Origin: an uncultured virus (IMG/VR IMGVR_UViG_3300025151_000026)
Lineage: Duplodnaviria > Heunggongvirae > Uroviricota > Caudoviricetes
DNA length: 20,000 bases
Virus record (IMG/VR): IMGVR_UViG_3300025151_000026
Reading direction: 5' to 3' (one strand)
Within the stretch, counting starts at the first letter, position 1, and each line of letters begins with the position of its first letter. The notes beneath the pieces were generated by a model, which was not told the origin of the DNA, did not search any database, and saw only the letters and a list, made by a program, of their open reading frames with translations. Position numbers and translations under genes: made by a program. Shown here one piece after another: positions 6,927 through 20,000 of this stretch.

Positions 6927-6936
6927 ACTATTTATA
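6927..6936 (-). promoter_or_regulatory. TATA-like promoter box TATAAATAGT
   Basis: Exact motif; 20 nt upstream of ATG 6906. Confidence 0.75.
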
Positions 6937-6941
6937 CTTAC

Positions 6942-8885
6942 TCATCTATTTCTGGCACGGATTCCACGCTTGCGATGGTAGGCTTTGTCTCTAATTTCTT
7001 GTCGCTTACGCCATTCCTTCATTAAAATTAAATATCTTTCATAGGTGTCTGGTTGTAGCCCTTCCATGTTCAAAATCATGCGTTTATACCAATCTACACT
7101 ATCAGGGTGAATATCTATACCTAATTTGAGTAATTTATGACAAATGAGGGCATCTGCACCTTCAAAAAGCCAATAATCTAAGAAGACACGGGCAAAATCC
7201 CAAAGAGTGCTCGGTCGGGTTGTAATATTAAGAGGCTCACCACCCAAAGGCCGATAACCTACTCGTTCTAAATAATAAGGAAAGGTTTGCATATCGGTAA
7301 AAACCGTATATTCTACATCCCAAGTTTGGCCGGGAAGCACATAAACATTAGGTTTCAAGGCATATTGAGGCACAGCAATACCGGGTTGCACTGGAAATGG
7401 GGCTGCATCGCCTGAAATGCCGGGGCTGGTGGTGCCATCAGGATTTTCATAATAACGACTATCATTAACCACTAAATTAACGAAACCATTGGGCTTAAAA
7501 TCAGAAACGAAAGTTATTTCATTGGAGTTAGGATATCTAACAAAATAACGAGGTCCTTGTGGGGCAGCAGTAGTCCAATTATTTTCATAACGATTAGGTG
7601 GAGTAATAGGTCCGTGTCTACCTGTCCCCGAATAAGTGGTGGCATAAGTGGTAACGGGAGCACTACCACCCAATTTACCAAACGAAGGAAAATATCTAAT
7701 TCGCATTTGTGGTGGGGCTTGAGTAGGTCGGTTACGGGCTAAAGAAAAAACCCATTGAATCTTAACTTTACCTGCATCTTGGTTAACGAAACCTCCTTCA
7801 TACTCCATAGGTCCATAATCTCCCGTATCACCGGCGGCTACATCGTCAGCATCAGGCACATACATTTCAAAAGTAACGCCTAAGTTGCTTTGAGCACCAT
7901 AGGGTTGTGGATAAAGTCCCACGATACCTTGGTCGTAATCTGGTTCACAGACATAACCATGCCGATCTTGTTGAAGTGTGCCATCAGGATTGGGTTGAGC
8001 AAACTCTTCTACATTAGCCAGACTGTTAGCAGGATAAATAATAGAATTAACAATAACATCTGCAAACGTAACACCGGGTCCTAATGTGGTAGCACGAGTG
8101 TCACTTTCTGTAAAGAACAAACCACGATAATAAGCATTATCATATTCCACAATACTTGGACTTCTCGGTAAGCCAGTAGAAGTTGGTTTTTGAAGAGGGT
8201 ATCCAAACGCTACTTGAACAGGTGTCCATGCCTCTTCAGGAAGATCCTTAGCAGTAGTTCCGGGTGGTAGATTACGCTCACAATAATCAATGGATTGAAT
8301 ACGAGCACCACTGATTTGTTGCCCATTTATATTTAAATCTATTACTAAGGTATCAAAGGCATAAGAAGGAGTAAGAGTGGGATCTGGTAAAATGCCGGGG
8401 GTGGACCCGAAATTATTGAAAACTAAGAACTGGTCGGCTTGAACTAAAGGTTGGAAAGCAATTTGTTTTCGCTTCCAATTATCCACAGGAATATCGCTAC
8501 CTTGATAATATTGCCAATTACCATAATCGTCAAACGGACCGGGTGGAGTATATTTATCTGCAGCACGATTACCTAAGCCATCAGGAATATCATTAAAAAT
8601 ACCACGAGAAGTTTTGGCACCAGAACCATATTTAGAAGTAAAAATAGAAAAAGGAATGCTGGGTTCAGGCCATGCTTGGTAATCCCAACCTATCAATTCA
8701 CCATTTACTTTATACCCTGTGTTGGCGATAGGTGACCGAGGGTCAATGGGGTTAGGTGCCCTACCCTGACCATCTACTGAAGAATAAGCCAGAGGTCCTC
8801 GTAAATACATTCCATTGTAGCCAAGAGGTAATTGAAACATAGCCGTATTAGGACCCAATCTCCAATTATAAACTAAATGCCTCAT
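6942..8885 (-). CDS. Hypothetical virion protein (647 aa), Pro/Gly/Tyr-rich, paralog of 8882-9907, with Arg/Lys-rich C-tail
   Basis: Long ORF; ATGA overlap with the upstream gene; shares PxxYVLPGxTW and ARxFxxYxLxxGADxLIxxKxLxxGI blocks with its neighbour. Confidence 0.65.
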   Translation of the reverse strand: MRHLVYNWRLGPNTAMFQLPLGYNGMYLRGPLAYSSVDGQGRAPNPIDPRSPIANTGYKVNGELIGWDYQAWPEPSIPFSIFTSKYGSGAKTSRGIFNDIPDGLGNRAADKYTPPGPFDDYGNWQYYQGSDIPVDNWKRKQIAFQPLVQADQFLVFNNFGSTPGILPDPTLTPSYAFDTLVIDLNINGQQISGARIQSIDYCERNLPPGTTAKDLPEEAWTPVQVAFGYPLQKPTSTGLPRSPSIVEYDNAYYRGLFFTESDTRATTLGPGVTFADVIVNSIIYPANSLANVEEFAQPNPDGTLQQDRHGYVCEPDYDQGIVGLYPQPYGAQSNLGVTFEMYVPDADDVAAGDTGDYGPMEYEGGFVNQDAGKVKIQWVFSLARNRPTQAPPQMRIRYFPSFGKLGGSAPVTTYATTYSGTGRHGPITPPNRYENNWTTAAPQGPRYFVRYPNSNEITFVSDFKPNGFVNLVVNDSRYYENPDGTTSPGISGDAAPFPVQPGIAVPQYALKPNVYVLPGQTWDVEYTVFTDMQTFPYYLERVGYRPLGGEPLNITTRPSTLWDFARVFLDYWLFEGADALICHKLLKLGIDIHPDSVDWYKRMILNMEGLQPDTYERYLILMKEWRKRQEIRDKAYHRKRGIRARNR

Positions 8886-9907
8886 GGTAACGAACTCCTG
8901 CGAGTAGTCATGCCAGTGGCCTGAATCAATTCTTCATCTAAATCGCCTTCATGAATATCGGCTCGTAGTTGCCAACGAGTAAGGTCTTGTTTAAACTCTT
9001 GAAGATTCTTTTCCGTGACGGGAATACCAATATCTAACATTTTCTTAGCAATCAGAAAATCAGCACCATCAATTAATAAATATTTTACAAAAGCCCGAGC
9101 AATTTGATAATCTTTAAACAAAATAGGATTTTGTGGACCGTTAGTTTCGGTATTCCAACCAGCCGGATCTTCGCCAATGGCTTGTCCAACCCAAGATGGT
9201 AAACGATTTCGCACATTACCTACGGGATATGACATATCTACAGTTGGGTCATAAGGGTATCCGTTTTCACGAGATTCACCCGTAGCATAAACTTGTGAAC
9301 CTATGGGATAGCCCGGACCAGCATCATTAGTAGAAACTTCATCAGGACCACTCCAGAAAACACCCCATGTAGAGCCGGGAAGAACGTAAATAGGTGGGTC
9401 AATACCGTGTTTAAAGGATTCTACTGTAAAGAGATTAGCAAAATTAGGTTCTGGAAATGGAACTGTAAAACCACTTAAACCGTTAAGGGCTGAGTAATCA
9501 GGAGCATCGTAGTAATAATTTTCATCTACAAATATATTTAAGTTAGCCGGTGGTGGCCACACAGATAAGAAATCAATGATAATCATTTGATTATCTAAAA
9601 CCTGAGCCGAAGTTTTGATATTGTTGCCAAATTGTCCTGTAAATAAACCAACAGGTTGTCCTCCCGGAATCACAGGAATTATAATGTTGTCGTTAATATT
9701 ATTATTATACTGGTTGTCTGGGGGTGTAGGTGGAACGCTGCCCGGAGGATTACCCCAATTAGCAATAGGAGTTACATAAGGATTACAGTCTAACACAGGA
9801 TAGCCCAAACAATAAGTTTTAGCACCTTCTAAACTTCCTTGTGTCGGACGATCTGGATTAGCAGCAACTACGTTGCGCCATTCATACGCCTGTCGCCTAA
9901 CAGCCAT
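8882..9907 (-). CDS. Hypothetical virion protein (~341 aa), paralog of 6942-8885
   Basis: Start moved to ATG 9907 (MAVRRQAYEWR), 19 nt from the promoter box; conserved blocks shared with the downstream gene. Confidence 0.65.
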   Translation of the reverse strand: MAVRRQAYEWRNVVAANPDRPTQGSLEGAKTYCLGYPVLDCNPYVTPIANWGNPPGSVPPTPPDNQYNNNINDNIIIPVIPGGQPVGLFTGQFGNNIKTSAQVLDNQMIIIDFLSVWPPPANLNIFVDENYYYDAPDYSALNGLSGFTVPFPEPNFANLFTVESFKHGIDPPIYVLPGSTWGVFWSGPDEVSTNDAGPGYPIGSQVYATGESRENGYPYDPTVDMSYPVGNVRNRLPSWVGQAIGEDPAGWNTETNGPQNPILFKDYQIARAFVKYLLIDGADFLIAKKMLDIGIPVTEKNLQEFKQDLTRWQLRADIHEGDLDEELIQATGMTTRRSSLP

Positions 9908-9926
9908 AAACTCAATGGGTTGCACT

Positions 9927-9936
9927 ACTATTTATA
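9927..9936 (-). promoter_or_regulatory. TATA-like promoter box TATAAATAGT, containing the TAA stop of the upstream gene
   Basis: Exact motif; 19 nt upstream of ATG 9907. Confidence 0.72.
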
Positions 9937-10198
9937 TCTCTTGACGGTTAATGGCAGCATAAAAAATATATTTTAAGGCTTGTTTCCATTTATCCTCTAA
10001 CCAAGTGCCTTTGCCCACCAGAGGGATAGAAGTATCAAGTTTAACATTAAAAACAGAGGGATACTCATCAAAAACAAGATACTGAATCAGATCTTTCTTT
10101 TTACCAGACACAGGTAAATCCTTGGCCTTTAACAATTCTTTGAGTTCGGCTATAGTCATATTGACATAAATATTATATCTCTTGACCCAGCCGGACAT
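9932..10198 (-). CDS. Small SAP-domain (DNA-binding) protein
   Basis: MTIAELKELLKAKDLPVSGKKKDLIQYL fits the SAP consensus (LxVxELKxxLKxxGLxxSGxKxxLIxRL). Start is either ATG 10198 (20 nt from a variant box) or ATG 10159. Confidence 0.75.
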   Translation of the reverse strand: MSGWVKRYNIYVNMTIAELKELLKAKDLPVSGKKKDLIQYLVFDEYPSVFNVKLDTSIPLVGKGTWLEDKWKQALKYIFYAAINRQEI

Positions 10199-10218
10199 AA
10201 AGATAATAGGTGTTACCA

Positions 10219-10228
10219 ACTATATGTA
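10219..10228 (-). promoter_or_regulatory. Degenerate promoter box TACATATAGT
   Basis: Two mismatches to consensus, but the same 20-nt spacing to ATG 10198. Confidence 0.45.
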
Positions 10229-10236
10229 GTTAAGGC

Positions 10237-10692
10237 TCACATAGGTGCGCCATTACTGAAACGCTCGCTGTAGTATTCCTTCTGGATAGCCAATTCACCA
10301 ATAAGGCTGACATTGACGGTGCGAGTAGCAGTAGTAGCAGTAGTTACGCTAACAGTAACTGCAAGCGGTTGCTGGAAAAGCACCAAAATTGGAGTAGAGA
10401 AAGCGAGAACTGGTCCACCTTGGTTGATGTTGGAGAAAACCCAACTAATGTCAAAAGCGTTGGAAGGAACGTTGTTAGGTCCAACTTGAATGGAAACAGT
10501 AAAATCAGTTTCGGAAGTGGCTACTGTGCCAGCAGCGTCAAGAATGTTAACAGCAATAGCGTAAAGACGGACTTCTTCGTTATTTGCTTGATTTGTGAAA
10601 ATTGTTTGAGTATTTACAGTGCCAGCAGTAGTCGCTCCAGTAAATGTATGGGTTGTGGAGTAAATCTCTGGTTGTGGATCTTGATTTGCCAT
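10237..10692 (-). CDS. Small beta-rich structural protein (151 aa), candidate single jelly-roll capsid protein, paralog A
   Basis: Thr/Val-rich strands throughout; over half identical by eye to 10746-11219; own promoter plus an AGGTGA ribosome site at 10699-10704. Confidence 0.6.
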   Translation of the reverse strand: MANQDPQPEIYSTTHTFTGATTAGTVNTQTIFTNQANNEEVRLYAIAVNILDAAGTVATSETDFTVSIQVGPNNVPSNAFDISWVFSNINQGGPVLAFSTPILVLFQQPLAVTVSVTTATTATRTVNVSLIGELAIQKEYYSERFSNGAPM

Positions 10693-10726
10693 CTTAAGTC
10701 ACCTATACATATTGTTGTGTTGCACG

Positions 10727-10736
10727 ACTATTTATA
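10727..10736 (-). promoter_or_regulatory. TATA-like promoter box TATAAATAGT (leadered transcript)
   Basis: Exact motif; 34 nt upstream of ATG 10692, with a Shine-Dalgarno in the extra leader. Confidence 0.72.
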
Positions 10737-10745
10737 TCTTATGCT

Positions 10746-11219
10746 TCATCGGACCCCACGAGGATTACGTCGCTGACGTTGGGAATAGTATTCTTTTTGA
10801 ATAGCAATTTCAGCAATCAGGGTGCAGACAACGGTTCTTTGAGCCGCTAAAGTCGCACCTGTAGTAGATTCCAAAGAAACTTGAACTGCTAAAGGTTGTT
10901 GAAACAGAGCCAAGATGGGTGAAGTAAAAGTCAAAGTTTTGTCGTCTTTGAAATTAATCACAGTAGCATCAAATGGATTGGAAGGAATATTATTGGGTCC
11001 GACTTGAATAGTGATAGCAAAATCAGTATCAGTGGTAGCGGTGGTGACGGGGGCACCATTTTCATTAAGTATATCTACCATAATGGCGTAAATACGAACT
11101 TCTTCGTTGTTAGCCTGATTAGTAAAAATAGTAGAGGTGGCTACATCTCCGGTAGTGTTAGCATTTGTAAACACCGCACGAGTAGTATACAACTCTGGTT
11201 GTGGATCTTGATTGACCAT
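10746..11219 (-). CDS. Small beta-rich structural protein (157 aa), candidate single jelly-roll capsid protein, paralog B, Arg-rich C-tail
   Basis: Shares NQDPQPE, TIFTNQANNEEVR, IQVGPNN, LFQQPLAV and AIQKEYYS with 10237-10692; ends QRQRRNPRGVR. Confidence 0.6.
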   Translation of the reverse strand: MVNQDPQPELYTTRAVFTNANTTGDVATSTIFTNQANNEEVRIYAIMVDILNENGAPVTTATTDTDFAITIQVGPNNIPSNPFDATVINFKDDKTLTFTSPILALFQQPLAVQVSLESTTGATLAAQRTVVCTLIAEIAIQKEYYSQRQRRNPRGVR

Positions 11220-11239
11220 AAGAGTAATAGCACCCCCTT

Positions 11240-11249
11240 ACTATTTATA
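11240..11249 (-). promoter_or_regulatory. TATA-like promoter box TATAAATAGT
   Basis: Exact motif; 20 nt upstream of ATG 11219. Confidence 0.75.
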
Positions 11250-11251
11250 AC

Positions 11252-11647
11252 TTACTTTCCATCTCTCATTCGCAGTTCTTCCCACATCCAATCGTCATTA
11301 GGTGCTGCGTATTGAGGTTCAATGAACTTCGGTGGAGCAGGAGGTTCAGGAGGGGCTGGAGGCAAGACAGGAAGGGATTTATCCATTAAAAGTCCGGGGA
11401 GAACTCCAGTGATTTTCTCTTTCCACACATACTTACGAGTAAACCACCAAGTTAAAGGCATGAAAATAAAGACATCTATGAGAATAGCCCAAGGTCCAAA
11501 TTGTTTAGAGGTAGCATTAATTTGTTCTTGTGTTTCTACAGGACCTAACATACCATCTTGCCAAATGTATCCAAGCCAAAGTCCACAGATAGCCATCACG
11601 ATAAAGATGGTAAAAATCAGGGCTTGAACAAAAGTAAGACGGGACAT
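11252..11647 (-). CDS. Hypothetical membrane protein (131 aa; 2 TM, Pro-rich tail)
   Basis: Hydrophobic stretches ALIFTIFIVMAICGLWLGYIW and WAILIDVFIFMPLTWWF; PVLPPAPPEPPAPP tail. Confidence 0.7.
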   Translation of the reverse strand: MSRLTFVQALIFTIFIVMAICGLWLGYIWQDGMLGPVETQEQINATSKQFGPWAILIDVFIFMPLTWWFTRKYVWKEKITGVLPGLLMDKSLPVLPPAPPEPPAPPKFIEPQYAAPNDDWMWEELRMRDGK

Positions 11648-11671
11648 ATCTGGACTCCAATTCGCCTTTTA

Positions 11672-11681
11672 GTTATTTATA
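11672..11681 (-). promoter_or_regulatory. TATA-like promoter box TATAAATAAC
   Basis: Variant motif; 24 nt upstream of ATG 11647. Confidence 0.6.
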
Positions 11682-11698
11682 TTTACGGTATTCTTGCA

Positions 11699-12169
11699 TC
11701 ATGAATCACGAAATAACTCGTCTTCAGTATTCCATTCAGGAACAGGTTCTAAATCTATTTCGGGTGGCACAGATAACGGATCGTTAGAAAGTAGGAAATC
11801 ATGAACTCGTGGAGCCAAATCATCTAACTTTTCATCAATGCTACTGCCCTTTTCTTCGGAAATCTGTTCTAATTTACTAAAGAAACTGGCTAAAATAGCA
11901 GTGCCACGATAAAACTCGGGTGTAAAGGCTTTGCGTTGCATTTCAGAAATCCTTTCAGCAGACCGTTGAGCCACAATAGCCAAAATAACGGCAGCCAAGT
12001 TAGTAGACATAATAAAAGCCAACATTTGATAGTTCAACCAAAAACTGGGAGTTATTATTTGAGCAATAGTTTGAGTTAGCAGGGCTAATCCTAATGAAAG
12101 GAAAACCATGGTCTTTGCGCTAATAAAATCTGTCTGATTAAAATCATTCCATTCACTTTTTGATGACAT
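11699..12169 (-). CDS. Hypothetical membrane protein (~156 aa; 2 TM)
   Basis: Two hydrophobic segments. Start moved to ATG 12169 (MSSKSEW), which follows GAGGAGGTG at 12177-12185; overlaps the end of the upstream gene. Confidence 0.7.
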   Translation of the reverse strand: MSSKSEWNDFNQTDFISAKTMVFLSLGLALLTQTIAQIITPSFWLNYQMLAFIMSTNLAAVILAIVAQRSAERISEMQRKAFTPEFYRGTAILASFFSKLEQISEEKGSSIDEKLDDLAPRVHDFLLSNDPLSVPPEIDLEPVPEWNTEDELFRDS

Positions 12170-12638
12170 GAAGATACACCTCCTCAAATATTTCTATATA
12201 TCCAATAATTTCGTAGTCGTAAGAAGCCAAAAGTTCACGAACTTTCTTCTCCCATTTTCGTCCCTTATCTAAGGCAAACTCTTCCAACCTAAATATACCT
12301 TGTTGTGCTAACATGATAAAATCTTCATAATAAACAAAGGGATATAATTTTTCTTTATACTCTATTTCGTGGAACTCAGAGGCTACTTGGTGCACATCTT
12401 CTAATTGTTCCATAAGTTTACGCTCAAAAAAGTCGGCACCCATTTGTTGTTTGATAGGATCTTCTACTCCGATACCAGCAGACAGCCTTTCAGCCATCAT
12501 TTCCCATTCACGTTCAATGATAGCATCCCATCGTTGGCGGTCAGCATCATATTCCAAACCTAAATTAAGTCGGCGGTCTTTGAGATAATCGTTCCGCTTA
12601 GAACTAAGATATTCTAACCAGAGTTCCGACTCTTCCAT
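12153..12638 (-). CDS. Hypothetical soluble acidic, helical protein (~161 aa)
   Basis: ORF in the co-oriented run; ATG 12638 lies 20 nt from a variant box; no family recognised. Confidence 0.65.
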   Translation of the reverse strand: MEESELWLEYLSSKRNDYLKDRRLNLGLEYDADRQRWDAIIEREWEMMAERLSAGIGVEDPIKQQMGADFFERKLMEQLEDVHQVASEFHEIEYKEKLYPFVYYEDFIMLAQQGIFRLEEFALDKGRKWEKKVRELLASYDYEIIGYIEIFEEVYLHVIKK

Positions 12639-12658
12639 AAGCAATCATAGGTGGGTCA

Positions 12659-12668
12659 CCTACTTATA
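12659..12668 (-). promoter_or_regulatory. Variant promoter box TATAAGTAGG
   Basis: Two mismatches; 20 nt upstream of ATG 12638. Confidence 0.55.
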
Positions 12669-12671
12669 TCT

Positions 12672-12884
12672 TCATTGGCTAAAATAGTTGATAGCCGTGG
12701 CACTTATCCACGAAAAGGTGCCGACAATGGCAACCATAGAAATAAAATCTTTAGTATCGGGTAAAACAATTTGTGGGAATTGAATAGGTCCATCATCTTG
12801 CCAAGCACCTAATTGATAATGAAATAAGGCTTCTACTAAGAAAGCAGCAAAAGTAATACCGATAACTAAATTGGTTTTTGTCAT
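12672..12884 (-). CDS. Small membrane protein (70 aa; 2 TM)
   Basis: LVIGITFAAFLVEALF and FISMVAIVGTFSWISATAI; GGTGA site 4 nt upstream of ATG. Confidence 0.65.
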   Translation of the reverse strand: MTKTNLVIGITFAAFLVEALFHYQLGAWQDDGPIQFPQIVLPDTKDFISMVAIVGTFSWISATAINYFSQ

Positions 12885-12888
12885 AGTA

Positions 12889-13968
12889 TCACCGATCCCA
12901 TTTGAATTGAGGGTTTATCTTAAACTTATCCATAATCATTTCAGACGCAAGATTTCCAAAAATGGTTCCCAGTGCCCCGATTAGACATCCAATAATTATA
13001 CCTTTTAACATAACGGAAGCGTCATCGTCATCATAAAGATTGGCTACTTCAGGATGTTTCCGAAGGTATTGAGTAACCGAAGAAGGAGGGTTATCATTTT
13101 TCAAACGAGGGTCACGAGCAGCCGCAGGGTCGTGATACACTTTCCCCACAGGTGCGGTAAATCTCTCCCAATCCAACCAAGATTCTTTTTTCTTAATTTT
13201 ATTTAATATTTCCTTTCTTTTAGATTTTGATAATTCAGTCCAAGAATCCATAACTCCAAGATTCGCAAGCCTATCTCCTAAAAATCCCGATTTTCTATCA
13301 ATTTCTTTAAAACTCATTGTTGATAATTTATCAACTGAATATTCAGCCTCTGCTAAGAATTGGTCGTCCCATGATGATAATAAATTATCCATGATGTCAT
13401 CAATAGCCTGATTCAACTGCAGATTGTCTGTATCTGCTAAAATATCTTCTCTTTCTTCTTCAGACAAATTGTCATACCATCGGTATGCTACTCGTTCACG
13501 AGTATCTTCGTCGCCGGTGAGAGCAATATATATTTTTAATACGTCTTCAGAAGCACCATTTACCCAATCTTCAGACCAGTTTTCATAAGCCTGCTCGGTA
13601 GCCATTTGTGGATCGTAATAAGAATCGTCATACCCTTCTTCGCTTTGATACATTACGGGTTTAGTATAATGTCCACCACAAGAAGTGCCGGGGCCTTGAA
13701 AACGACCTCCAAGGACTCTACAATCACTCATAGTAGTTTCCATACACCTGCCATCAGGTAGCAAACAGGCACCAAACCAATTAGAATAAGGTGTAGCGTT
13801 GAACTCTTCCATTTCCAATAACATATCTATTTGACTATCAGTCATAATTTCCATAAGGTAATCAATAGAATCTTCCTCATCAGAATCAGGGTGAGCGTCT
13901 AACCACGCCACATATTCTCTAAGTTGGCGGTCAGAAATTATATCTAATAAAACTGACAGTTCGGTCAT
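12889..13968 (-). CDS. Acidic mosaic protein (359 aa) with a Cys-rich module and a C-terminal TM anchor
   Basis: GACLLPDGRC...DC...GGRFQGPGTSC module; C-terminal VMLKGIIIGCLIGALGTIFG; ATGA overlap with the upstream gene. Confidence 0.7.
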   Translation of the reverse strand: MTELSVLLDIISDRQLREYVAWLDAHPDSDEEDSIDYLMEIMTDSQIDMLLEMEEFNATPYSNWFGACLLPDGRCMETTMSDCRVLGGRFQGPGTSCGGHYTKPVMYQSEEGYDDSYYDPQMATEQAYENWSEDWVNGASEDVLKIYIALTGDEDTRERVAYRWYDNLSEEEREDILADTDNLQLNQAIDDIMDNLLSSWDDQFLAEAEYSVDKLSTMSFKEIDRKSGFLGDRLANLGVMDSWTELSKSKRKEILNKIKKKESWLDWERFTAPVGKVYHDPAAARDPRLKNDNPPSSVTQYLRKHPEVANLYDDDDASVMLKGIIIGCLIGALGTIFGNLASEMIMDKFKINPQFKWDR

Positions 13969-14246
13969 CCTTGTGCCTCCTTGATCTCTTCTGTTAGACC
14001 GAGAGCAAGGATTACAAAGGGTATACTCATTAGAGCATAATCAGTCCAACCAAACGCATCTGACGGCCAGCCGTATTGACGATAGGTGCGAGCCACACCC
14101 AGAAGTGTAGAAGTAAAGAAAGCAGCCGAACCAACGGCAGGAATCAAAAGACCACGCCATGCCTTACGGCGGGCTTGTTGTTGAGCATCAACTTCAGCCT
14201 CAACGTTTTCTTTCAAATGTTGTTGTTCGTCACCAACTTGAGTCAT
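13965..14246 (-). CDS. Small membrane protein (~93 aa; 2 TM)
   Basis: Start moved to ATG 14246 (MTQVGDEQQ), after GAGGTGA at 14251-14257; two hydrophobic segments. Confidence 0.65.
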   Translation of the reverse strand: MTQVGDEQQHLKENVEAEVDAQQQARRKAWRGLLIPAVGSAAFFTSTLLGVARTYRQYGWPSDAFGWTDYALMSIPFVILALGLTEEIKEAQG

Positions 14247-14250
14247 AACT

Positions 14251-14793
14251 TCACCTCGTAAGGAGTGCTGCGCCTGCACCAAGAATACCGACAATAGCCA
14301 TGCTACGCCAAGGAATTGAAGTTTCTGGCTCTACTTGCATTCCACTGATTTCTTCAGTTTCTTCTGCATTTCCGGTTACTACGGACGGATCATCCGAAGT
14401 TCGGCATCCGAAAACATTAGACCACAAAGGATTACACAGACGATTTTCTGTCATCCAGCGAGAAAATGAACCCGGCATAGATTGGTCAAGATAAGTATAA
14501 TCTTGCATATCAGCACCACTGGAAGGCATCCATTTCATAGTAGAACGACCTGAAGCAGTATAAGGAATACCGGCTTGACCATAGGGTTGGTAAGCATTAC
14601 CAGATTGGTCTAAAGTAGTAAGAGTTGGAACCCATGCCATCCATGGCACGGTAGAAGGGGCTTTAGAAATAGGGTCTCCGCCCGCAGTGTATCCAATGAT
14701 TTCCTGTTTCTTAGACGGGTCAGAAGGATCTTGAACATAACACTTACGGTTATACAAGTCACCTCGGTCACAAGTGATGTTATAGCCAGCCAT
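14251..14793 (-). CDS. Hypothetical protein (180 aa) with two Cys pairs and a C-terminal TM anchor
   Basis: Own promoter; C-terminal WRSMAIVGILGAGAALLTR. Confidence 0.7.
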   Translation of the reverse strand: MAGYNITCDRGDLYNRKCYVQDPSDPSKKQEIIGYTAGGDPISKAPSTVPWMAWVPTLTTLDQSGNAYQPYGQAGIPYTASGRSTMKWMPSSGADMQDYTYLDQSMPGSFSRWMTENRLCNPLWSNVFGCRTSDDPSVVTGNAEETEEISGMQVEPETSIPWRSMAIVGILGAGAALLTR

Positions 14794-14813
14794 GTATATT
14801 ATACGGTCAGCCG

Positions 14814-14823
14814 ACTATTTATA
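14814..14823 (-). promoter_or_regulatory. TATA-like promoter box TATAAATAGT
   Basis: Exact motif; 20 nt upstream of ATG 14793. Confidence 0.75.
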
Positions 14824-14824
14824 C

Positions 14825-15745
14825 TTAATCTTCAGTAGAATCTTCGTCTTGACTCTTAGCAAAACGATTCAAAAGCATAACGGCGGCAATCAAACCGAGT
14901 GTGCCGATACCAGCAGAAATAAAAGCGTTTCTTTTCAACTTGCCACCTTCAGTATTAAAATCACGCATAAAGCGGTCATCAAGGTAAGCATCTTCACCTA
15001 CGGTGGGGAATCCTTGAGCCTCAATAATCATATCTAACAAGTCGTCTGCGAAAGGTCCACCTGCACTGACATGAACACCATCGTCTTCACGATAAACTCG
15101 CACTTGACCTTCAGAAACCATATCTGACCAGTCATCGTGGGCAGTTAAGCGACGGTATAAATCTTTGGAAACGGTAAAGGTTTCAAAGTTTTCAGGAATC
15201 TCTTTTTCGTCTTGGACTTCTACAGTATCTGCGCCATAAGTAATACATGGGTCTTGACCACAGCCACAGTTTTTCTTTTCAGTTTCTGCCGACATACTCA
15301 TAGGACCAATGTTATCATCGTCATCTTCACCGTTAAATGGCGTAGCATTTATATTTACTACGGCATCAGTGCCGGGGGTGGCGGTTGTCATGGAAGCAGA
15401 ATTACTGCCGATAACACGACCGTTGCCATCAGGTTGGAAAGTTTCGTCACCAATCATAGCCACTTCTTCTACACCATCGGCTTGTTCTTCTGCCACAGGT
15501 GCATCAACAACATCAGCCACGTTTTCTGAAGCCTTGGCTTCTTCCATGCCGGGATAAGTAATATCTATACCAGATTCTTTAGAAACACGTTCTGCTTCTG
15601 CTTTGGAACAGACTTTGTGACAGTTATAAGTTTTACCTTTATATTTATATTCGCCTTTGATACCATAAGATTTTTTCTTAACAATACCTGTGACTTTACC
15701 TTTAACAGATTTCTTGAGTGGTAAACAATAAAAACTATACTTCAT
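14825..15745 (-). CDS. Mosaic protein (306 aa): Lys-rich N-domain, acidic linkers, CGCGQDPC motif, C-terminal TM
   Basis: Compositionally distinct blocks; TM AFISAGIGTLGLIAAVMLL; GGTGA site 4 nt upstream of ATG. Confidence 0.7.
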   Translation of the reverse strand: MKYSFYCLPLKKSVKGKVTGIVKKKSYGIKGEYKYKGKTYNCHKVCSKAEAERVSKESGIDITYPGMEEAKASENVADVVDAPVAEEQADGVEEVAMIGDETFQPDGNGRVIGSNSASMTTATPGTDAVVNINATPFNGEDDDDNIGPMSMSAETEKKNCGCGQDPCITYGADTVEVQDEKEIPENFETFTVSKDLYRRLTAHDDWSDMVSEGQVRVYREDDGVHVSAGGPFADDLLDMIIEAQGFPTVGEDAYLDDRFMRDFNTEGGKLKRNAFISAGIGTLGLIAAVMLLNRFAKSQDEDSTED

Positions 15746-15749
15746 TTAA

Positions 15750-16307
15750 TCACCAACCGAAGGTTTGAGCCTCGTAAGAAACTCGTGGAGCAAATAAATC
15801 TGCGGAAGGGGCGAAACCAAAGGCTTCTTGTCCTACGGCAGAACCGTAAATACCATGAGATCCAAAGTCTACATGGTCAGCGTTAGCAATTGGCTCAAAT
15901 AAATATTGAGCATCATCAGCCAAGTAAGCAGTTTGTTCTACTTGTTCAGCATTACTTTCTTCTTCACTATGCTTTTCCATTTCGCTTTCGTAAGCGTTTT
16001 GAGTAGCCTCTAACAAGGATTCATATCGCTTAATTTCATCTTGGGCTACGTTACCACGAGTCATACGACCCAGACCGTAAGCCAAAGGTGCAACACCAAA
16101 AACAATGGCTACTAAGGTGCGATGAGCACCTAAAACATCAAACTTGGCTTTGTCTAAACCACAGAAGGCTAAAGTGCCTGCACCTAAGAATAAAGGAATA
16201 CCAGTAGAGGGATTAAGGGCTTCTTTTTCAAGAGAAGATGGTTCACGAGGCGTATCATCGCCTTCACCAAACAAGATTTGGTTTCTTAATGACGCAAAGT
16301 CTACCAT
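15750..16307 (-). CDS. Hypothetical membrane protein (185 aa; N-terminal hydrophobic segments, coiled/acidic C-half)
   Basis: GIPLFLGAGTLAFCGL and TLVAIVFGVAPLAYGLG; own promoter. Confidence 0.68.
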   Translation of the reverse strand: MVDFASLRNQILFGEGDDTPREPSSLEKEALNPSTGIPLFLGAGTLAFCGLDKAKFDVLGAHRTLVAIVFGVAPLAYGLGRMTRGNVAQDEIKRYESLLEATQNAYESEMEKHSEEESNAEQVEQTAYLADDAQYLFEPIANADHVDFGSHGIYGSAVGQEAFGFAPSADLFAPRVSYEAQTFGW

Positions 16308-16327
16308 ACTAATACCTTCGGCTTACA

Positions 16328-16337
16328 ACTATTTATA
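16328..16337 (-). promoter_or_regulatory. TATA-like promoter box TATAAATAGT
   Basis: Exact motif; 20 nt upstream of ATG 16307. Confidence 0.75.
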
Positions 16338-16340
16338 CTT

Positions 16341-16715
16341 TCAGTTGGCACCAACGGCACGACCAAAGTAATTTGCTCCGAAAATAGGCTCAGTGGTCAT
16401 AAGTGTGTAAGAATAGGCTGTCCAATCAGAACGAACCGTGTCTTCTACATTGTTAGAGGTTTGTCCAACTGGATAAGTATAGTTGACATTTTGTCCGACG
16501 GCTTGTCCTCCCATGATACCACGGTCGGTGCCGATTACAGGGATTGTTCCCCAATTGTTGACTAAATGTTCTTTGCCAGTTTCAGTGTGGGCTTCTTTGG
16601 TTTCTTCAGTAGCCTCGCTACTGTCGTTCATTCTGCCCTTGATATAACTGCCTACAACAAGAGTTACCAGAGCGATTGGGATACCAATCATTAAACCTTC
16701 AGTTACTGCTGACAT
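16341..16715 (-). CDS. Hypothetical protein (~124 aa) with an N-terminal TM anchor
   Basis: GLMIGIPIALVTLVVGSYI; start moved to ATG 16715, 20 nt from the promoter box. Confidence 0.68.
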   Translation of the reverse strand: MSAVTEGLMIGIPIALVTLVVGSYIKGRMNDSSEATEETKEAHTETGKEHLVNNWGTIPVIGTDRGIMGGQAVGQNVNYTYPVGQTSNNVEDTVRSDWTAYSYTLMTTEPIFGANYFGRAVGAN

Positions 16716-16735
16716 ATTATTCACTTCTCCTCACG

Positions 16736-16745
16736 ACTATTTATA
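16736..16745 (-). promoter_or_regulatory. TATA-like promoter box TATAAATAGT
   Basis: Exact motif; 20 nt upstream of ATG 16715. Confidence 0.75.
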
Positions 16746-16746
16746 T

Positions 16747-19008
16747 TTACTGTTGTTCTCGGTTGTAAACCGCACCCAGACCCAAAAGAGCCAAAGGAAT
16801 AGTAAAGGCTGCCGCAATAGCACCAAAGCCTAATTTGTAACCTGTGCGGAATGGCTTTTCTAATTGAATAGGAACAGTAGGGTCAGCCAAACGACGTTGC
16901 TCGGCATCCATCTGGATTTCTTCTTGGATTTCTACCTGTTCTTGCAGTTCGTCTAAACGGGTAGCAATTTGATTACGATAACGAATCATTTCTTGTAACA
17001 AGGGGTGCTTAGGATTATCCATGGTTTGATACATAGTAGCGATGTCGCTTTCTAAGGACATATACAGTGAAAGCAGACGATCGAAATCTTGCTCATCATC
17101 AATAATTATATCTTCTCGGATTTCTAACAGAGTGTTGAACGGAGAATCAGCCGCAAACTCTTCGGCTTGCTTGAAGATTTTCTTGAATTGAGTTAGTTCC
17201 CTATCAGTGCGACGAACATTATATCCTGCATCACGACGAGCATCGGAATGTCCTTCGTTGTAAGCGTAAATAAAAGCATCGGATTCAGCACGTTGTCGCT
17301 TAAGTCCGGGGGTGCCATCCATGGGTTTCCAGTTAGCCATTTCTCCAAACTCCATTGGGTCCATAACAGGAGTGCTGTCTTCACTTTGGTAAAGAACGTC
17401 AAACTCTTCATCGGGTTGAGCACCCTCACCAAGAACAATATAAGCACCTTTGTAAGCCTCCATGCGGTTATCAGCGTAAACAGTAATTTGTCCCGTGTCT
17501 TCGTGTTCACCATCTACATAAATATAATAGGTAAAAGTATGGGCACGTTGGGGGTCGTAAGCCTTATCTCCATACCAATTCTTAATGACCATATCTTCAT
17601 CTTCGGCACCATAAAGTCCACCAGATGATTCTACCATGTCTTGTTGAGCCTCGGTATAGTTAAGGAAAGTATCGCCTGCGCCTACTAAGACTCCCAAAGG
17701 TGGGGCAGAAGCCGAGGAATATCCACTACCTGTGGGTGACATAGGTCCCGAGGTTTCCCACTCTACAATGCCATCATTCCAGACCGGAATATCTTCGGCA
17801 TCCATGTTATCATAATATTCTTCTAAAAAGTCTCGCCAGTGATTACCACAACGCTCTTCCAAATAAGCAGCATATTGGTCAACCAGACCACTTCCGAATG
17901 GTAATTCATGTGACTCTGCGGCATGAGTGCCAGTTTCAGCAGTATTGAAATCACTGTATTCGTGATACCATGTTACTGACACATCAACGTCAAATTGCTC
18001 ATCATAACTTGGGTCGCCATCATTAAAGGTATACTCAAAGTTTAATTTTCCTTCACCATCACCTGTGCTGCGAATCTCTTGTTCTACATAGTCCTCAAGT
18101 TCTCCCATCTGATCACCAGTCAAATCTTGGGGGGATTCATAGTCACATTGATATTTAATAGTTCCAAAAGACATACGCTCTCCTTCAAAACTACCGTAAT
18201 AAATATTACCATCTTCAGCATAATGTTGACGCATATAATCTACATCAGTAGCAGCGTCGTCCATTTCCCGTTCCTCTCGTTCACGCTTGAGACGTTCACG
18301 CTTGGTTTCAGCCTTCATAGCAGAAACACGATAATAACCTTCGCCTTCTGGCCCTCCTTCATCATAAATCCATTTAGCAGCACAAGGTTGGCAAATGTTG
18401 TCATGTCCTTCTATATCTCCACCGGGATTAGGTAATCCAGTAATATAACAGTTAGGACCTTCGGCATATTCAGTCCATTCTAAAAAGTCAATACCATCAA
18501 GGTGATCATCCTGACAAACAGTTTCTTCAGCAGCAAAAGGGTTATTAGATTCAGGAGTGCTTTGTGGACGATGTTCTTGGTGTTCTTGTTCTTGTTGTTG
18601 CGATTCACCGCCACTTTCAGTTCCACCATTTGATGGCGGAGTTGGTGTTTCTATCTCGTATTCGGGATTAATGCCAACGGGTTTTAAAGTTCCGCCAAGA
18701 TTTTCCCACATCAAATCAGAAGTAACGTGTCCCAAAGAAGGGTGGCTGTAAAGATTATATGGTTCAGCACCCATCTTGACTTCATCAACTAAATAATCAT
18801 CGTCAAAAGCACCGATTTGTTGTAGTTCAGCGATTTTGTCCTCACGGTCTAATTCCGAAAACTCTTCTTCAATAGTAATCATAAAATCTTCTAATTCATC
18901 GGGAGAATAAATATCCATTTTATAACCCAGTTGTTCTAACTGATCGAAATCTAACAGACGAAACATATCGTCTAATTGTTCATCACTGAAATATTGCACG
19001 AAAATCAC
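16747..19008 (-). CDS. Large acidic mosaic protein (~753 aa), putative polyprotein with recurrent xxAE motifs and a C-terminal TM anchor
   Basis: Long ORF with 13 AE dipeptides spaced between unrelated modules; C-terminal LGFGAIAAAFTIPLALLGLGAVY. GTG start at 19008 (GTGA overlap) or 18999. Confidence 0.72.
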   Translation of the reverse strand: MIFVQYFSDEQLDDMFRLLDFDQLEQLGYKMDIYSPDELEDFMITIEEEFSELDREDKIAELQQIGAFDDDYLVDEVKMGAEPYNLYSHPSLGHVTSDLMWENLGGTLKPVGINPEYEIETPTPPSNGGTESGGESQQQEQEHQEHRPQSTPESNNPFAAEETVCQDDHLDGIDFLEWTEYAEGPNCYITGLPNPGGDIEGHDNICQPCAAKWIYDEGGPEGEGYYRVSAMKAETKRERLKREREEREMDDAATDVDYMRQHYAEDGNIYYGSFEGERMSFGTIKYQCDYESPQDLTGDQMGELEDYVEQEIRSTGDGEGKLNFEYTFNDGDPSYDEQFDVDVSVTWYHEYSDFNTAETGTHAAESHELPFGSGLVDQYAAYLEERCGNHWRDFLEEYYDNMDAEDIPVWNDGIVEWETSGPMSPTGSGYSSASAPPLGVLVGAGDTFLNYTEAQQDMVESSGGLYGAEDEDMVIKNWYGDKAYDPQRAHTFTYYIYVDGEHEDTGQITVYADNRMEAYKGAYIVLGEGAQPDEEFDVLYQSEDSTPVMDPMEFGEMANWKPMDGTPGLKRQRAESDAFIYAYNEGHSDARRDAGYNVRRTDRELTQFKKIFKQAEEFAADSPFNTLLEIREDIIIDDEQDFDRLLSLYMSLESDIATMYQTMDNPKHPLLQEMIRYRNQIATRLDELQEQVEIQEEIQMDAEQRRLADPTVPIQLEKPFRTGYKLGFGAIAAAFTIPLALLGLGAVYNREQQ

Positions 19009-20000
19009 ACCTGTTCTTTGTATCCTTGACGAAGTTTACGGTTCATCTTCTTCATACCTTCTGCTTCTGACATCGGACCGAAGATAGTCATAGTTTTTCC
19101 GATACGACCATAGCCGTTAAACACACCACGGTTAGTAAAAGCGAAAACGTGATATTTGTTAGATGTTCCTTTACGGTTAGTAATGTATTCTGTGCGGTTA
19201 ATGCGAATGCCTTTGTAGCGTTGACGTAGGGCTTTCTTGACATCGGCTACATCAGTCGCCTTTTTAGGGTCAATACGAGCCATGGCTTCTAAATATAGTT
19301 CCTCAGCATCCCAGATCTCTTCAGCACGAGATTGTAGATTTTGGTGTCCTGAGTAGTTCAATGAAGCGTTATCAAAGTCACCATGAATAGCACTGGAAGT
19401 AGTGAGTTCGTCCATAGTAAAACTACCTAAGCCAGTGTCTTTACCAATATCCATAAGAGCACCTGCGCCAACATAAGGCGCATTAAACTCTTCTGCTCGG
19501 TAAGTAAAGTAACCCTTGCGCTCTTTGGCCTTGAGTTTCTTAGTAGCAGCAGCCACGGCTTGGGCTTGGTCACGAGTAGTCATAACATCAAACAAACGAG
19601 GGTTCTGGGCTAAGCCACCGTAGCCACCGAGAGCACGGAATACACCTTTGCCATTATTGTAGACAAAGACCATGTAAAACTTGTTGGTGTTAGCACCTTC
19701 CATACGAAGGGCATATGGACCCCAGACGCATTGTGAATATTCAAAGTTAGGGTCTATCTCGGCACGAATAGCCGAGCGAAGGTTGGCTTTTTCACGGTTG
19801 AGATTAGGGGCAGCCGTAGAAGCAGCAGCAAAGTATTCTGCAGATTTACCACGACGACCAGCCATAGCCTTGCGTGTCATACCACGCTTACCGTATTTCT
19901 TGGCACCAATCTTGTAAGCGGTGCGACGACCAATTTCATCAGCCTCTTGCTTGGACTTACCTTTGTCTTGGTATTGCATAGAAATCTTGTGAGCCAATTT
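19005..20000 (-). CDS. Protein with two WGR-like domains (>=330 aa, probably 5'-truncated)
   Basis: NTNKFYMVFV...GYGGL...KKLKAKERKGY (~19506-19715) and TSNKYHVFAF...GYGRIG...KMNRKLRQGY (~19017-19190) fit the WGR pattern (SNKFY...WGRIG...K.KKGY). The frame stays open to the window edge. Confidence 0.7.
   Translation of the reverse strand, partial: KLAHKISMQYQDKGKSKQEADEIGRRTAYKIGAKKYGKRGMTRKAMAGRRGKSAEYFAAASTAAPNLNREKANLRSAIRAEIDPNFEYSQCVWGPYALRMEGANTNKFYMVFVYNNGKGVFRALGGYGGLAQNPRLFDVMTTRDQAQAVAAATKKLKAKERKGYFTYRAEEFNAPYVGAGALMDIGKDTGLGSFTMDELTTSSAIHGDFDNASLNYSGHQNLQSRAEEIWDAEELYLEAMARIDPKKATDVADVKKALRQRYKGIRINRTEYITNRKGTSNKYHVFAFTNRGVFNGYGRIGKTMTIFGPMSEAEGMKKMNRKLRQGYKEQV

Follow-up and report, generated by a model that had tools for sequence, protein, structure and literature searches.

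The stretch of DNA analysed here, referred to as the window, comprises 20,000 nucleotides of an uncultured virus (IMG/VR record IMGVR_UViG_3300025151_000026). Its region 12889-20000 encodes a group of mosaic, cassette-like proteins, most of which carry a predicted membrane anchor and whose modules are delimited by a four-residue signal that typically ends in Ala-Glu (AE). An initial annotation of this DNA had described the proteins in these terms, with x-x-A-E as the delimiting motif, and comparison with relatives bears this out: module gain, loss, permutation and movement between neighbouring genes occur at the signal. Judging from sequence comparisons, we read the signal as a junction code, with about an even chance of being proteolytic, used both in a soluble polyprotein and in tail-anchored ones.

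The window has 22 long open reading frames (ORFs), all on the minus strand. Eight of these occupy the region 12889-20000 and, in order of transcription, encode a WGR-like protein, a 753-amino acid (aa) protein, two small membrane proteins of 127 and 185 aa, and proteins of 306, 180, 109 and 359 aa. A contig of 136,324 bp (G001:C16, hereafter the 136-kb relative) has 21 genes collinear with those of the window, with protein identities of 47-96%, and its stretch from 62 to 83 kb corresponds to window positions 1-20000. Its gene content serves as our genome context and may differ from that of the window virus's own contig of 75.6 kb. The genes most relevant to the signal are listed below (TM, transmembrane; HSP, high-scoring segment pair).

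19005..20000, minus strand: 3' part (331 codons) of the gene for a soluble WGR-like polyprotein; the frame is open at base 20000 and continues past the window end
16747..19008, minus strand: predicted tail-anchored mosaic polyprotein of 753 aa with about 13 modules (ORF, HSP breakpoints and AlphaFold2)
14825..15745, minus strand: 306-aa predicted tail-anchored modular protein (TM at aa 274-292 of 306; relatives of 325-455 aa)
14251..14793, minus strand: 180-aa protein with a hydrophobic C-terminal tail (its ortholog in the 136-kb relative is predicted to be tail-anchored, aa 164-182 of 184)
12889..13968, minus strand: 359-aa predicted tail-anchored modular protein (TM at aa 319-337 of 359; relatives of 199-301 aa)

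The 753-aa protein contains 13 AE and 2 EA dipeptides, exactly as the initial annotation had counted. From its 49 alanines and 90 glutamates, 5.86 AE would be expected, and at least 13 arose in 11 of 5000 composition shuffles (p 0.0022). The WGR-like ORF has 6 AE compared with 2.4 expected (p 0.023). The remaining 20 of the 22 window ORFs show no AE enrichment in such shuffles (all p > 0.16); by count alone, the signal is therefore real but modest and confined to two proteins.

A family set was assembled from 164 proteins related to the window's four mosaic proteins, drawn from 26 loci and from protein hits, with each distinct 10-residue context entering the count a single time. The set holds 507 AE compared with 214 expected (2.4-fold, z 20.1), and 184 EA. 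AE is the top dipeptide by z score, followed by CG (9.0) and KR (8.8), and these values overstate independence because the counted proteins are the window's relatives. The proposed enrichment of AE beyond composition thus holds in the shuffles and in the family-wide counts alike.

Across 310 dereplicated contexts, position P4, which lies two residues before the alanine, is enriched for M (5.3-fold), F (3.0-fold), Y (2.4-fold), K (2.1-fold) and H (2.1-fold). The bulky residue that had been noticed at this place is thus a family-wide feature. W at P4 is enriched 3.2-fold as measured on 573 contexts prior to dereplication. At P3, just before the alanine, S, G and R are each enriched about 2-fold in the 310 contexts. 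Preferences C-terminal to Glu are weaker, with T or S next and then F (4.2-fold) and A (2.4-fold), a pattern that mirrors a common AE-x-F-x-A start. The wider consensus is [M/F/Y/W/K]-x-[A/S]-E, and variant junctions with SE and GE are also present. The signal is asymmetric: its conserved positions are N-terminal to Glu and travel with the upstream module, and the next residue is set by the downstream module. Such one-sided conservation resembles that of many endopeptidase sites.

Strings quoted earlier as recurring linkers (KSAEYFAA, YRAEEFNAPY, SRAEEIWDAEE, KQAEEFAAD, MEEFNATPY, FLAEAE, INATPF, MSAE and YGAD) are all present in the translations, and YQSE is found in both the 359- and 753-aa proteins. 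A junction score matrix scanned over the 136-kb relative gave no discrimination outside the training families. The strongest AE excess on that contig (10 compared with 2.4 expected) is in a 268-aa ORF (G001:C16 120349-121155) that looks like a coiled coil with runs of AE, not a mosaic protein; an excess alone is therefore not specific for a junction code.

Elsewhere on the 136-kb relative, a 662-aa protein with a hydrophobic C-terminal tail (G001:C16 93559-95547; L032:13559-15547) carries GVPQWYG(S)AE five times and has 12 AE compared with 5.2 expected. An adjoining 348-aa membrane protein has 6 AE and no EA. By sequence, the junction code seems to reach these genes outside the window.

A search of 5.8 billion proteins with the 753-aa query returned 88 relatives, mostly of high identity over part of the query (two examples are 96% identical to it across 28% and 10% of its length, respectively). 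We defined breakpoints as clusters of internal BLASTP HSP ends between this query and 87 relatives. HSP ends fall at aa 82, 161, 183, 234, 266, 360, 366, 469-472, 575/576, 616 and 703, and HSP starts at aa 160, 231, 264, 357, 404, 540-543, 574 and 616. The glutamates of the 13 AE sites are at aa 61, 82, 161, 183, 234, 265, 358, 365, 405, 469, 575, 616 and 703. Eleven of 21 HSP-end clusters lie at most 2 aa from an AE glutamate, a count reached by none of 20,000 random placements of 13 sites. AE takes 52% of the HSP-end clusters, and the best of 11 control dipeptides with at least 7 copies takes 14%. Viewed from the sites, 12 of 13 are on a breakpoint when the 32 HSPs that start at aa 400-404 are counted. 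A cluster off AE, at aa 551, adjoins the SE variant YQSE (aa 540-543), as do 35 HSP starts. The junctions of the 753-aa protein are as follows, with a slash marking the boundary between modules here and below.

18763..18768, minus strand: KMGAE (aa 81-82), end of the N-terminal helical domain; 12 HSP ends at or near aa 82, and helix 71-80 ends here
18526..18531, minus strand: FAAE (aa 160-161), before the Cys module; 18 HSP starts at aa 158-165 and 4 ends at aa 161
18307..18312, minus strand: MKAE (aa 233-234), end of the Cys module; 14 HSP ends at aa 234
18214..18219, minus strand: HYAE (aa 264-265), flanked by helix 256-263 and strand 270; 7 HSP ends and 7 starts
17914..17940, minus strand: NTAE (aa 357-358) and HAAE (aa 364-365), both within the linker that follows the beta-alpha-beta domain 266-352; HSP ends at 360 and 366, starts at 357
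17794..17799, minus strand: MDAE (aa 404-405); 32 HSP starts at aa 400-404, E405 invariant in 37 sequences
17602..17793, minus strand: module M404 (aa 406-469), ending in GLYGAE; the most conserved and most mobile module, with 34 flank contexts
17380..17385, minus strand: SE variant LYQSE (aa 542-543); 35 HSP starts at aa 536-543, and the beta-alpha-beta domain 474-540 ends here
17284..17289, minus strand: QRAE (aa 574-575), end of module M540; 30 HSP ends at aa 575/576
17161..17166, minus strand: KQAE/EFAAD (aa 615-616); HSP ends and starts at aa 616
16900..16905, minus strand: MDAE (aa 702-703), between a helical module and the anchor stub; 4 HSP ends at aa 703, near the end of helix 669-708
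16777..16833, minus strand: predicted C-terminal TM helix (tail anchor), aa 726-744 of 753; Kyte-Doolittle mean of 2.06 over 19 aa, no other TM segment

Four modules of the 753-aa protein were traced through the relatives by their distinct flank contexts, and homologs keep the motif at module junctions. M404, of 64 aa, ends in AE in 34 of 34 distinct contexts (GL[WY]GAE; 78-100% identical) and is preceded by AE in 25 of them and by SE or GE in the other 9. M540 (aa 544-575) likewise ends in AE in all 34 contexts, 32 of which read KR[QK]RAE and 2 of which read KRRKNA/E, shifted by one residue. The Cys module (aa 162-234) has an AE ending in 16 of 22 distinct contexts and the beta-alpha-beta module (aa 266-358) in 6 of 7. 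For all four, the residue following Glu changes with the downstream neighbour. When 37 proteins are aligned, E405, A468 and E469 show no variation.

In most relatives, M404 is located inside the WGR-like polyprotein, between its two WGR-like parts, and not in the anchored protein. This most conserved module (window 17602-17793) is predicted to be disordered and has a Gly/Ala/Val-rich hydrophobic stretch, SASAPPLGVLVGAGDTF.

The window's WGR-like ORF consists of a basic module, WGR-like part 1, an 'LMDIGKDTGL' module and WGR-like part 2; the order of the basic module and WGR-like part 1 is reversed compared with that in locus L025. Full-length relatives of this polyprotein have 755-959 aa and begin with MAKAPVV. 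It contains the following junctions.

19836..19841, minus strand: GKSAE/YFAA, between the basic module and WGR-like part 1; HSP ends at KSAE
19491..19496, minus strand: TYRAE/EFNAPY, after WGR-like part 1; HSP end at YRAE/YKAE (here alternative readings), and the next residues differ in relatives (SNFN...)
19302..19325, minus strand: double junction SRAE/EIWDAE/ELYLEAMARI, before WGR-like part 2; in most relatives M404 sits here and ends GL[WY]GAE/[NH]FEAMARI

The same behaviour is observed in two of the anchored proteins. In the 306-aa family, 8 relatives carry a module of 113-116 aa that is inserted exactly after PMSM[SA][AS]E and that itself ends in ...GKAAE or ...FDAE. In the 359-aa family, a window module of about 60 aa that directly follows FLAE is missing from 6 relatives, and the 160 aa that follow MYQSE are missing from 2. 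No large indels were found among 14 relatives of the 180-aa protein.

15284..15289, minus strand: SMSAE (aa 153-154 of the 306-aa protein); the 113-116-aa insert of 8 relatives is exactly here
13639..13644, minus strand: SE variant MYQSE (aa 109-110 of the 359-aa protein); 2 relatives read ...MSAE/YNAPPGKV and ...MHSE/YNAPEGKV, lacking the next 160 aa
13168..13353, minus strand: FLAE (aa 206-207 of the 359-aa protein) and the module of about 60 aa after it; 6 relatives without the insert read ...DDQFLAE/RFTAPVGKV or ...DDQFLAE/YHAPPGKV

Stand-alone forms of a module are also found. Nine clusters of short proteins, which start with MSHTF..., end with ...KIFKQ directly ahead of the AE of aa 615-616, and two relatives run from ...KIFKQAEE on into an unrelated module. 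Because the stand-alone forms stop before AE and others continue through it into another module, AE is best regarded as a junction element outside the fold of the upstream module.

An AlphaFold2 model of the 753-aa protein, built from 79 sequences, has a mean predicted local distance difference test (pLDDT) score of 58.9 and predicts confident domains at aa 1-81, 236-263, 266-352, 374-400, 474-540 and 625-708. The AE sites at aa 81, 233, 264, 357, 364, 404 and 468, together with the SE site at aa 542, border these domains or occupy the linkers that join them. Of the 13 AE glutamates, 10 lie in coil runs, which make up 51% of the chain, and the linker that holds NTAE and HAAE is coil with pLDDT below 50. 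Thus, two independent measures, HSP-end clusters and domain edges, agree with the claim that AE falls at block boundaries. The more specific expectation that the motif would map onto AlphaFold domain boundaries stands for these seven AE sites, and those at aa 60, 615 and 702 are in predicted helices. A fold search with the model found no solved structure at E <= 0.001.

The modules themselves do not resemble known enzymes. A Pfam scan of 66 relatives of the modular proteins gave only three matches, two to WGR and one to WYL_2, all below threshold, and the recognisable cargo or effector domains that had been anticipated were not recovered. From these scans, the modules are not recognisable effectors or enzymes. 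The WGR match (PF05406) in the window protein has an E value of 0.0076 and 16.8 bits, where the Pfam gathering cut-off is 22 bits. Relatives score 21.1 and 19.8 bits (2 of 66) and 8.9 bits (L020), again all below 22, and two relatives carry the source label 'predicted DNA-binding WGR domain protein'. The protein first described as a WGR protein of 330 aa is therefore WGR-like, a label that we use tentatively, and its gene is cut by the window end.

A crude Kyte-Doolittle hydropathy scan finds one C-terminal TM segment, and no other TM or signal segment, in the 753-, 306- and 359-aa proteins and in the ortholog of the 180-aa protein, at the positions listed above. This bears out the single TM helix that had been proposed at the end of four proteins, for the 180-aa protein by way of its ortholog. 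With one TM segment in the last ~35 residues, these sequences have the form expected of tail-anchored proteins.

The family is marine and appears to belong to a large archaeal virus. Its members were found in 24 marine metagenome contigs and 2 genome-collection contigs. No match was found by blastn and tblastn against 50,697 phage records, and IMG/VR scans by protein, by alignment and with the window's last 51 bases revealed no relative. The 136-kb relative is filed in a Rickettsiales metagenome-assembled genome, in which it is probably wrongly binned. We scanned it with Pfam (144 of 153 ORFs), NCBIfam (106 ORFs) and PHROGs (78 ORFs). In Pfam, one of its genes matches archaeal DNA polymerase D, large subunit DP2 (three domains, E 4e-108 to 4e-76), and the contig also encodes a TFIIB/TFB factor (E 7e-42; best solved relatives 1d3u and 1ais) and a HerA/FtsK-type ATPase with a C-terminal TM helix. 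A single-domain ArsA/Get3 ATPase is encoded at G001:C16 124172-125197 (L034:4172-5197; PF02374, E 3.9e-56), and the solved structures closest to it are those of ArsA1 (5zme) and of two archaeal single-domain proteins (3ug6 and 3zq6). Other genes encode a PolX-LigD phosphoesterase fusion, an ATP-dependent ligase, Fpg, NUDIX, a Cu/Zn superoxide dismutase, glycosyltransferases, and collagen and thrombospondin repeats. Pfam at E <= 0.001, a search that divergent capsid proteins can escape, gave no match on this contig to an HK97 capsid, a portal or a classical terminase, and the sole 'terminase' PHROG match of the contig is the HerA/FtsK-type ATPase.

By the same crude hydropathy measure, 44 of the 153 ORFs of the 136-kb relative have a TM segment and 18, including the HerA-type ATPase, are tail-anchored. 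Together with the Get3-type gene, this suggests that the virus supplies its own tail-anchor targeting factor. Given the archaeal PolD, TFB and Get3 and the TM-tailed HerA-type ATPase, the anchors of the mosaic proteins are better read as tail anchors of an archaeal virus. The gene content indicates that the element is probably a large virus of marine archaea with a membrane-containing particle, and the lineage of the 136-kb relative probably represents undescribed large archaeal viruses. The open-access papers that we searched gave no account of this lineage, nor of a Get3 or a PolD encoded by a virus, nor of the AE code.

A search for a protease on the window and the 136-kb relative, along the lines that the initial annotation had advised, yielded no known family and a single zincin-like candidate. 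No protease is encoded in the window. The T4 gp21-type peptidase family S77 (PF03420) has no match at E <= 1 in the whole genome G001, and Ulp1/adenain-type cysteine peptidases (C5/C48/C57/C63) have no Pfam match on the 136-kb relative. Relaxed Pfam searches of 12 unassigned ORFs of this contig also found nothing. Several motif matches on the contig were discarded: an Ulp1-like Q...DCG match is located in a repeated Cys-rich beta-type domain and not in a peptidase, a second HExxH is inside a helicase, and GDSG-like strings are without support.

The motif scan of the 136-kb relative left one serious candidate, a 408-aa protein with FVIGHEIGHLTTH (G001:C16 110178-111404). It has 27 relatives among 1.84 billion representatives, and in 17 aligned sequences H83 and E84 of its HExxH motif are invariant and H87 is nearly so. 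No Pfam or PDB sequence match was found for it. In the protein atlas it lies near 'putative metallopeptidase' clusters (score 0.90), which we treat as a lead only. Its structure model (pLDDT 88) is matched by Foldseek to the minimal archaeal zincins abylysin (4jiu, prob 0.99, E 0.025), jannalysin and selecase, with matches ranging down to prob 0.75 and E 0.29. The VIA aligner lists ERAP1 (Z 7.0, root-mean-square deviation 3.5, 118 aligned), aminopeptidase N (6.7), abylysin (6.6), selecase (6.5), ZMPSTE24 (6.3) and BlaR1 (5.9), a Z range that is middling by the tool's own scale. On the basis of this model, the protein is a zincin-like candidate protease and the only candidate seen. If the enzyme is a zincin with a Glu-specific S1' pocket, the cut would be between Ala and Glu, and if it is a serine or cysteine protease, the cut would more likely come after Glu.

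The gene for the candidate is part of a group at G001:C16 106406-115969 (L033:6406-15969) that encodes a VWA protein (335 aa), a 923-aa protein, the zincin-like 408-aa protein and a 1509-aa AAA-lid protein. It adjoins the gene for the AAA-lid protein and is two genes from that for the VWA protein, an arrangement that we take to recall MoxR-VWA pairs. Among loci L001-L026, whose flanks are too short to reveal it, the candidate did not appear beside the polyprotein genes.

A different part of the system could also hold an enzyme. Beyond the window end, at L020:8114-9013 and in 7 further loci, the first 300 aa of the WGR-like polyprotein are 92% identical column by column, and the rest of the protein is mosaic. 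Invariant His, Asp, Cys and Ser residues are present in this part at all 8 loci. A profile of it gave best E values of 0.72 and 1.8 against the PDB, and Pfam returned nothing meaningful. This part might be an enzyme embedded in the polyprotein, perhaps the protease itself.

The gene upstream of the WGR-like polyprotein, past the window end and known from relatives, encodes a classical AAA ATPase of 460-467 aa at all loci that reach far enough (L020:6695-8077 and 12 orthologs). It has PF00004 and AAA_lid_3 domains and is closest to the D2 ring of AFG2, p97 and VAT (E 3e-43 to 1e-38). Its C-terminus is Phe-Tyr-Gly in 13 of 13 orthologs, and the preceding dozen residues are variable. A hydrophobic-Tyr-X tail docks PAN, Cdc48 and related ATPases on the 20S proteasome. 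As a lead, the upstream ATPase would match the proteasome-docking type by its AAA ring and the form of its tail.

Taken together, these observations are best explained by the following model. The region 12889-20000 is part of a late, morphogenesis-type gene block of an archaeal-type marine virus-like element and encodes one soluble polyprotein and several tail-anchored 'beads-on-a-string' proteins composed of independent modules of 20-110 aa. Each module ends in the four-residue signal, in which a bulky M/F/Y/W/K and then a small or polar position precede Ala, at times replaced by Ser or Gly, and the closing Glu. With about an even chance, this signal serves as an endoproteolytic site next to Glu, either after Glu or between Ala and Glu as in SSV1 VP1, and each precursor would thus be split into separate small proteins. 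In the tail-anchored precursors, modules might first be concentrated on a membrane by the C-terminal anchor, whose insertion is probably aided by the virus-encoded Get3-type ATPase, and then be released. Because a module would need only an intact junction for its release, recombinants that keep the junction would be viable, and this would explain the free shuffling of modules. For packaging into virions, which may occur, gene position is the only indication. The full scenario, in which an undescribed lineage of marine archaeal viruses makes the inner proteins of a membrane-containing particle as polyproteins that are cut at [bulky]-x-Ala-Glu, is put forward tentatively, and we hold it to be somewhat short of an even prospect.

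Several observations weigh against a cleavage code. The family-wide statistics use proteins picked by their homology to the window, and dereplication removes this relatedness only in part. The AE at aa 60-61 is within a helix and at no breakpoint, those at aa 615 and 702 are within predicted helices, and 10 of the 21 HSP-end clusters are off AE (aa 244, 281, 287, 413, 484, 490, 551, 585, 602 and 666). HSPs tend to run on through a motif that is common to both partners, which somewhat sharpens the coincidence of breakpoints with AE, yet the coincidence could not be created in that way. In the structure model, 356 of 753 residues have pLDDT below 50. No peptidase family was found on the 136-kb relative by any of the Pfam, NCBIfam and PHROGs scans, and the zincin candidate rests on a motif and middling fold scores, without a tie to the AE motif. 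All of the evidence for a junction code also fits a repeated docking motif. The proteins might stay whole as multi-domain scaffold or matrix proteins, tail-anchored or in one case soluble, in which [bulky]-x-A-E is a repeated linker motif or domain cap, such as a site where a single partner docks multivalently, for example a capsid protein, a membrane protein or the Cdc48-like ATPase encoded just upstream. The conservation of this D2-like ATPase as upstream neighbour and the fivefold, multivalent-like GVPQWYG(S)AE repeat of the 662-aa tail-anchored protein agree with such a role, as does the failure to find a protease family on the window or its relative. However, the permuted module order and the presence of the same modules in a soluble or an anchored protein are easier to understand if modules end up free. 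The stand-alone forms drop AE, so the upstream module needs no motif for its own function, and the conserved positions lie on one side of Glu, as at a cleavage site. On balance we regard intact proteins as a somewhat unlikely outcome.

An improbable variant of cleavage is that the junctions are cut by the host 20S proteasome, or by another host protease, recruited by the viral Cdc48-like ATPase. The Cdc48/p97/VAT D2-like ring and invariant FYG tail of this ATPase would suit such recruitment, and Pfam found no viral protease family on the 136-kb relative. However, degradation by proteasomes is processive, and cutting at a code of four residues is not known for them; p97-type Leu-Tyr-Gly tails bind other partners too. 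Breakpoints that coincide with the motif might also reflect a signal in the DNA, a short conserved sequence for cassette recombination of which AE is merely the translation. This is contradicted by the codons. At 19 AE sites of two genes, GCT, GCC or GCA is combined with GAA or GAG in proportions about as elsewhere in the genes, and the flanking codons differ; therefore, selection acts at the protein level. SE and GE variants occur as well, and six degenerate bases are insufficient to guide homologous recombination, which makes a DNA-level signal very improbable. Least credible of all is chance or composition, in which case acidic, Ala-containing and helix-rich proteins would simply hold many AE. 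In its favour, 20 of the 22 window ORFs lack an excess, and the strongest excess on the 136-kb relative is in the coiled-coil-like ORF. Against this stand the asymmetry between AE and EA (13 to 2 in the 753-aa protein and 507 to 184 in the family, where z is 20), the breakpoint coincidence (0 of 20,000 placements) and the domain edges.

The proposed junction code can be compared with several known systems. African swine fever virus (ASFV) and adenovirus precursors are cut by adenain/Ulp1-like cysteine proteases. As with ASFV pp220/pp62 and the adenovirus precursors, we see a large double-stranded DNA (dsDNA) virus, here probably membrane-containing, with an FtsK/HerA-type ATPase, in which several core or matrix proteins would be made as one chain and one precursor is held at a membrane. 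The adenovirus code, (M/I/L)-x-G-G/x with the slash marking the cut, is similarly short, with a bulky P4 and a small P2. However, the code here is [A/S/G]-E and not the G-G or A-G of ASFV, adenovirus and poxvirus. The anchor here is a C-terminal TM segment instead of lipid, the host is probably an archaeon, and the modules are exchanged among strains and genes, a trait not known from the ASFV and adenovirus systems.

The prohead proteases of T4 (gp21) and phiKZ cut after Glu and release internal head proteins, with a consensus of L/I-x-E or S/A/G-x-E. Glu at the site, and the processing of many virion-internal proteins by one code, which is a feature of those phages, had prompted the initial comparison with them. 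The setting of this analogy is wrong, as the relative is of archaeal type, and the consensus differs. In the 310 contexts, P4 is bulky and P2 is Ala, the small residue is at P2 and not P3, and only the Glu at P1 agrees. The substrates here are chains of many modules, whereas those of T4 and phiKZ are single proteins with a propeptide. The relative also gave no Pfam match to S77 proteases or to the families of HK97 capsids, portals and classical terminases.

Among archaeal viruses, SSV1 provides a comparison for the site itself. Its mature VP1 begins with a universally conserved Glu, a few conserved residues lie N-terminal of this Glu, and the virus is without a recognisable protease gene, according to one published account (PMC5748691). 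In SSV1 there is one cut in one capsid protein, with the mature chain starting at Glu, and there are no modular polyproteins. With respect to anchoring, the proteins here share with clients of the Get3/TRC40 pathway a single TM segment in the last ~35 residues, the lack of an N-terminal signal and, in the relative, a Get3-type ATPase. Unlike in that pathway, Get3 is here encoded by a virus and the clients would be modular virus proteins.

Iyer, Aravind and co-workers are said to have described, in 2017, polyvalent proteins of phages and conjugative elements. Those are likewise long mosaic proteins, with domains that shuffle from one relative to another and presumably become free by proteolysis. 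However, they contain recognisable enzymatic and anti-defence domains and embedded peptidases. The window proteins yielded none of these and instead have a defined junction code of four residues.

Magroviruses (Aoguangviridae) are also marine, known from metagenomes only, and equipped with TFB; they have genomes of about 90-100 kb, a large replication set and PolB, and their HK97 head-tail module is complete, with its own maturation protease (PMC10768690). The relative here instead has PolD DP2 and a TM-tailed HerA-type ATPase, and PolB and HK97 families were not found on it by Pfam. By gene content, the element is distinct from magroviruses.

If the signal is cut, it would be a defined and easily testable code (Glu after Ala, with a bulky P4) in a group without a cultured member, and one that is usable for seeking neo-termini in marine metaproteomes. 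Polyprotein maturation, a strategy familiar in RNA viruses and in eukaryotic viruses of the ASFV and adenovirus type, would then reach large dsDNA viruses of archaea. This would also be the first such system in a dsDNA virus of prokaryotes and an independently arisen functional counterpart of the ASFV and adenovirus systems. The code would turn precursor genes into open cassette racks, with modules exchanged between genes and strains. The family is also a natural example of how a short junction signal makes modules freely exchangeable, with one 64-aa module in 34 contexts and two genes. Apart from cleavage, a relative with archaeal PolD, its own Get3 and about one-eighth of its ORFs tail-anchored may represent a virus that takes over tail-anchor insertion for its own membrane.

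A few details of the gene block deserve mention. The start of the 753-aa gene is likely the ATG at 18999, three codons into the ORF, which would give a protein of 750 aa as in relative P0001. Among the small proteins of the block, the 185-aa family shows no large indels among its relatives.

15750..16724, minus strand: two small membrane proteins of 185 and 127 aa, conserved in the same block and not mosaic (ORFs, hydropathy)
13965..14294, minus strand: small one-TM protein (109-aa ORF; hydropathy scan, ortholog of 91 aa); since the ORF overlaps the next gene, its true start probably lies further downstream

Elsewhere in the window, the ORFs at 2-2986 (E 1.8e-20) and 3004-4473 (E 9.2e-21) match tail-fibre PHROGs; beyond these two and one SAP domain, no window ORF reached a curated family. 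A 347-aa protein (window 6942-9925 region) and two upstream paralogs of 216-222 aa in relatives (L020:4042-5394) have the N-terminal motif R-x-Q-x-YEW in common. The C-terminal part of a 647-aa protein is related to the counterparts of these paralogs (210 and 161 aa) and to a 1573-aa protein of the 136-kb relative. The 347- and 647-aa proteins and the paralogs are possible capsid or vertex components. A PRD1-type capsid or spike assignment for the 647-aa protein had protein-atlas scores of only 0.76-0.78, which often arise by chance, and was set aside.

Tandem paralogs of 151 and 157 aa at window 10237-11219 both begin with M-x-NQDPQPE-x-Y, are Thr/Val-rich and are conserved in loci L016 and L020; neither has a family match. 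The SAP domain (E 1.9e-9) is in a 95-aa protein at window 9932-10219 that is conserved in the 136-kb relative, and SAP is a DNA-binding motif that is commoner in eukaryotes. At window 12672-12884, a 70-aa protein has two hydrophobic helices, and its size and form are presumably like those of the capsid proteins of spindle-shaped archaeal viruses.

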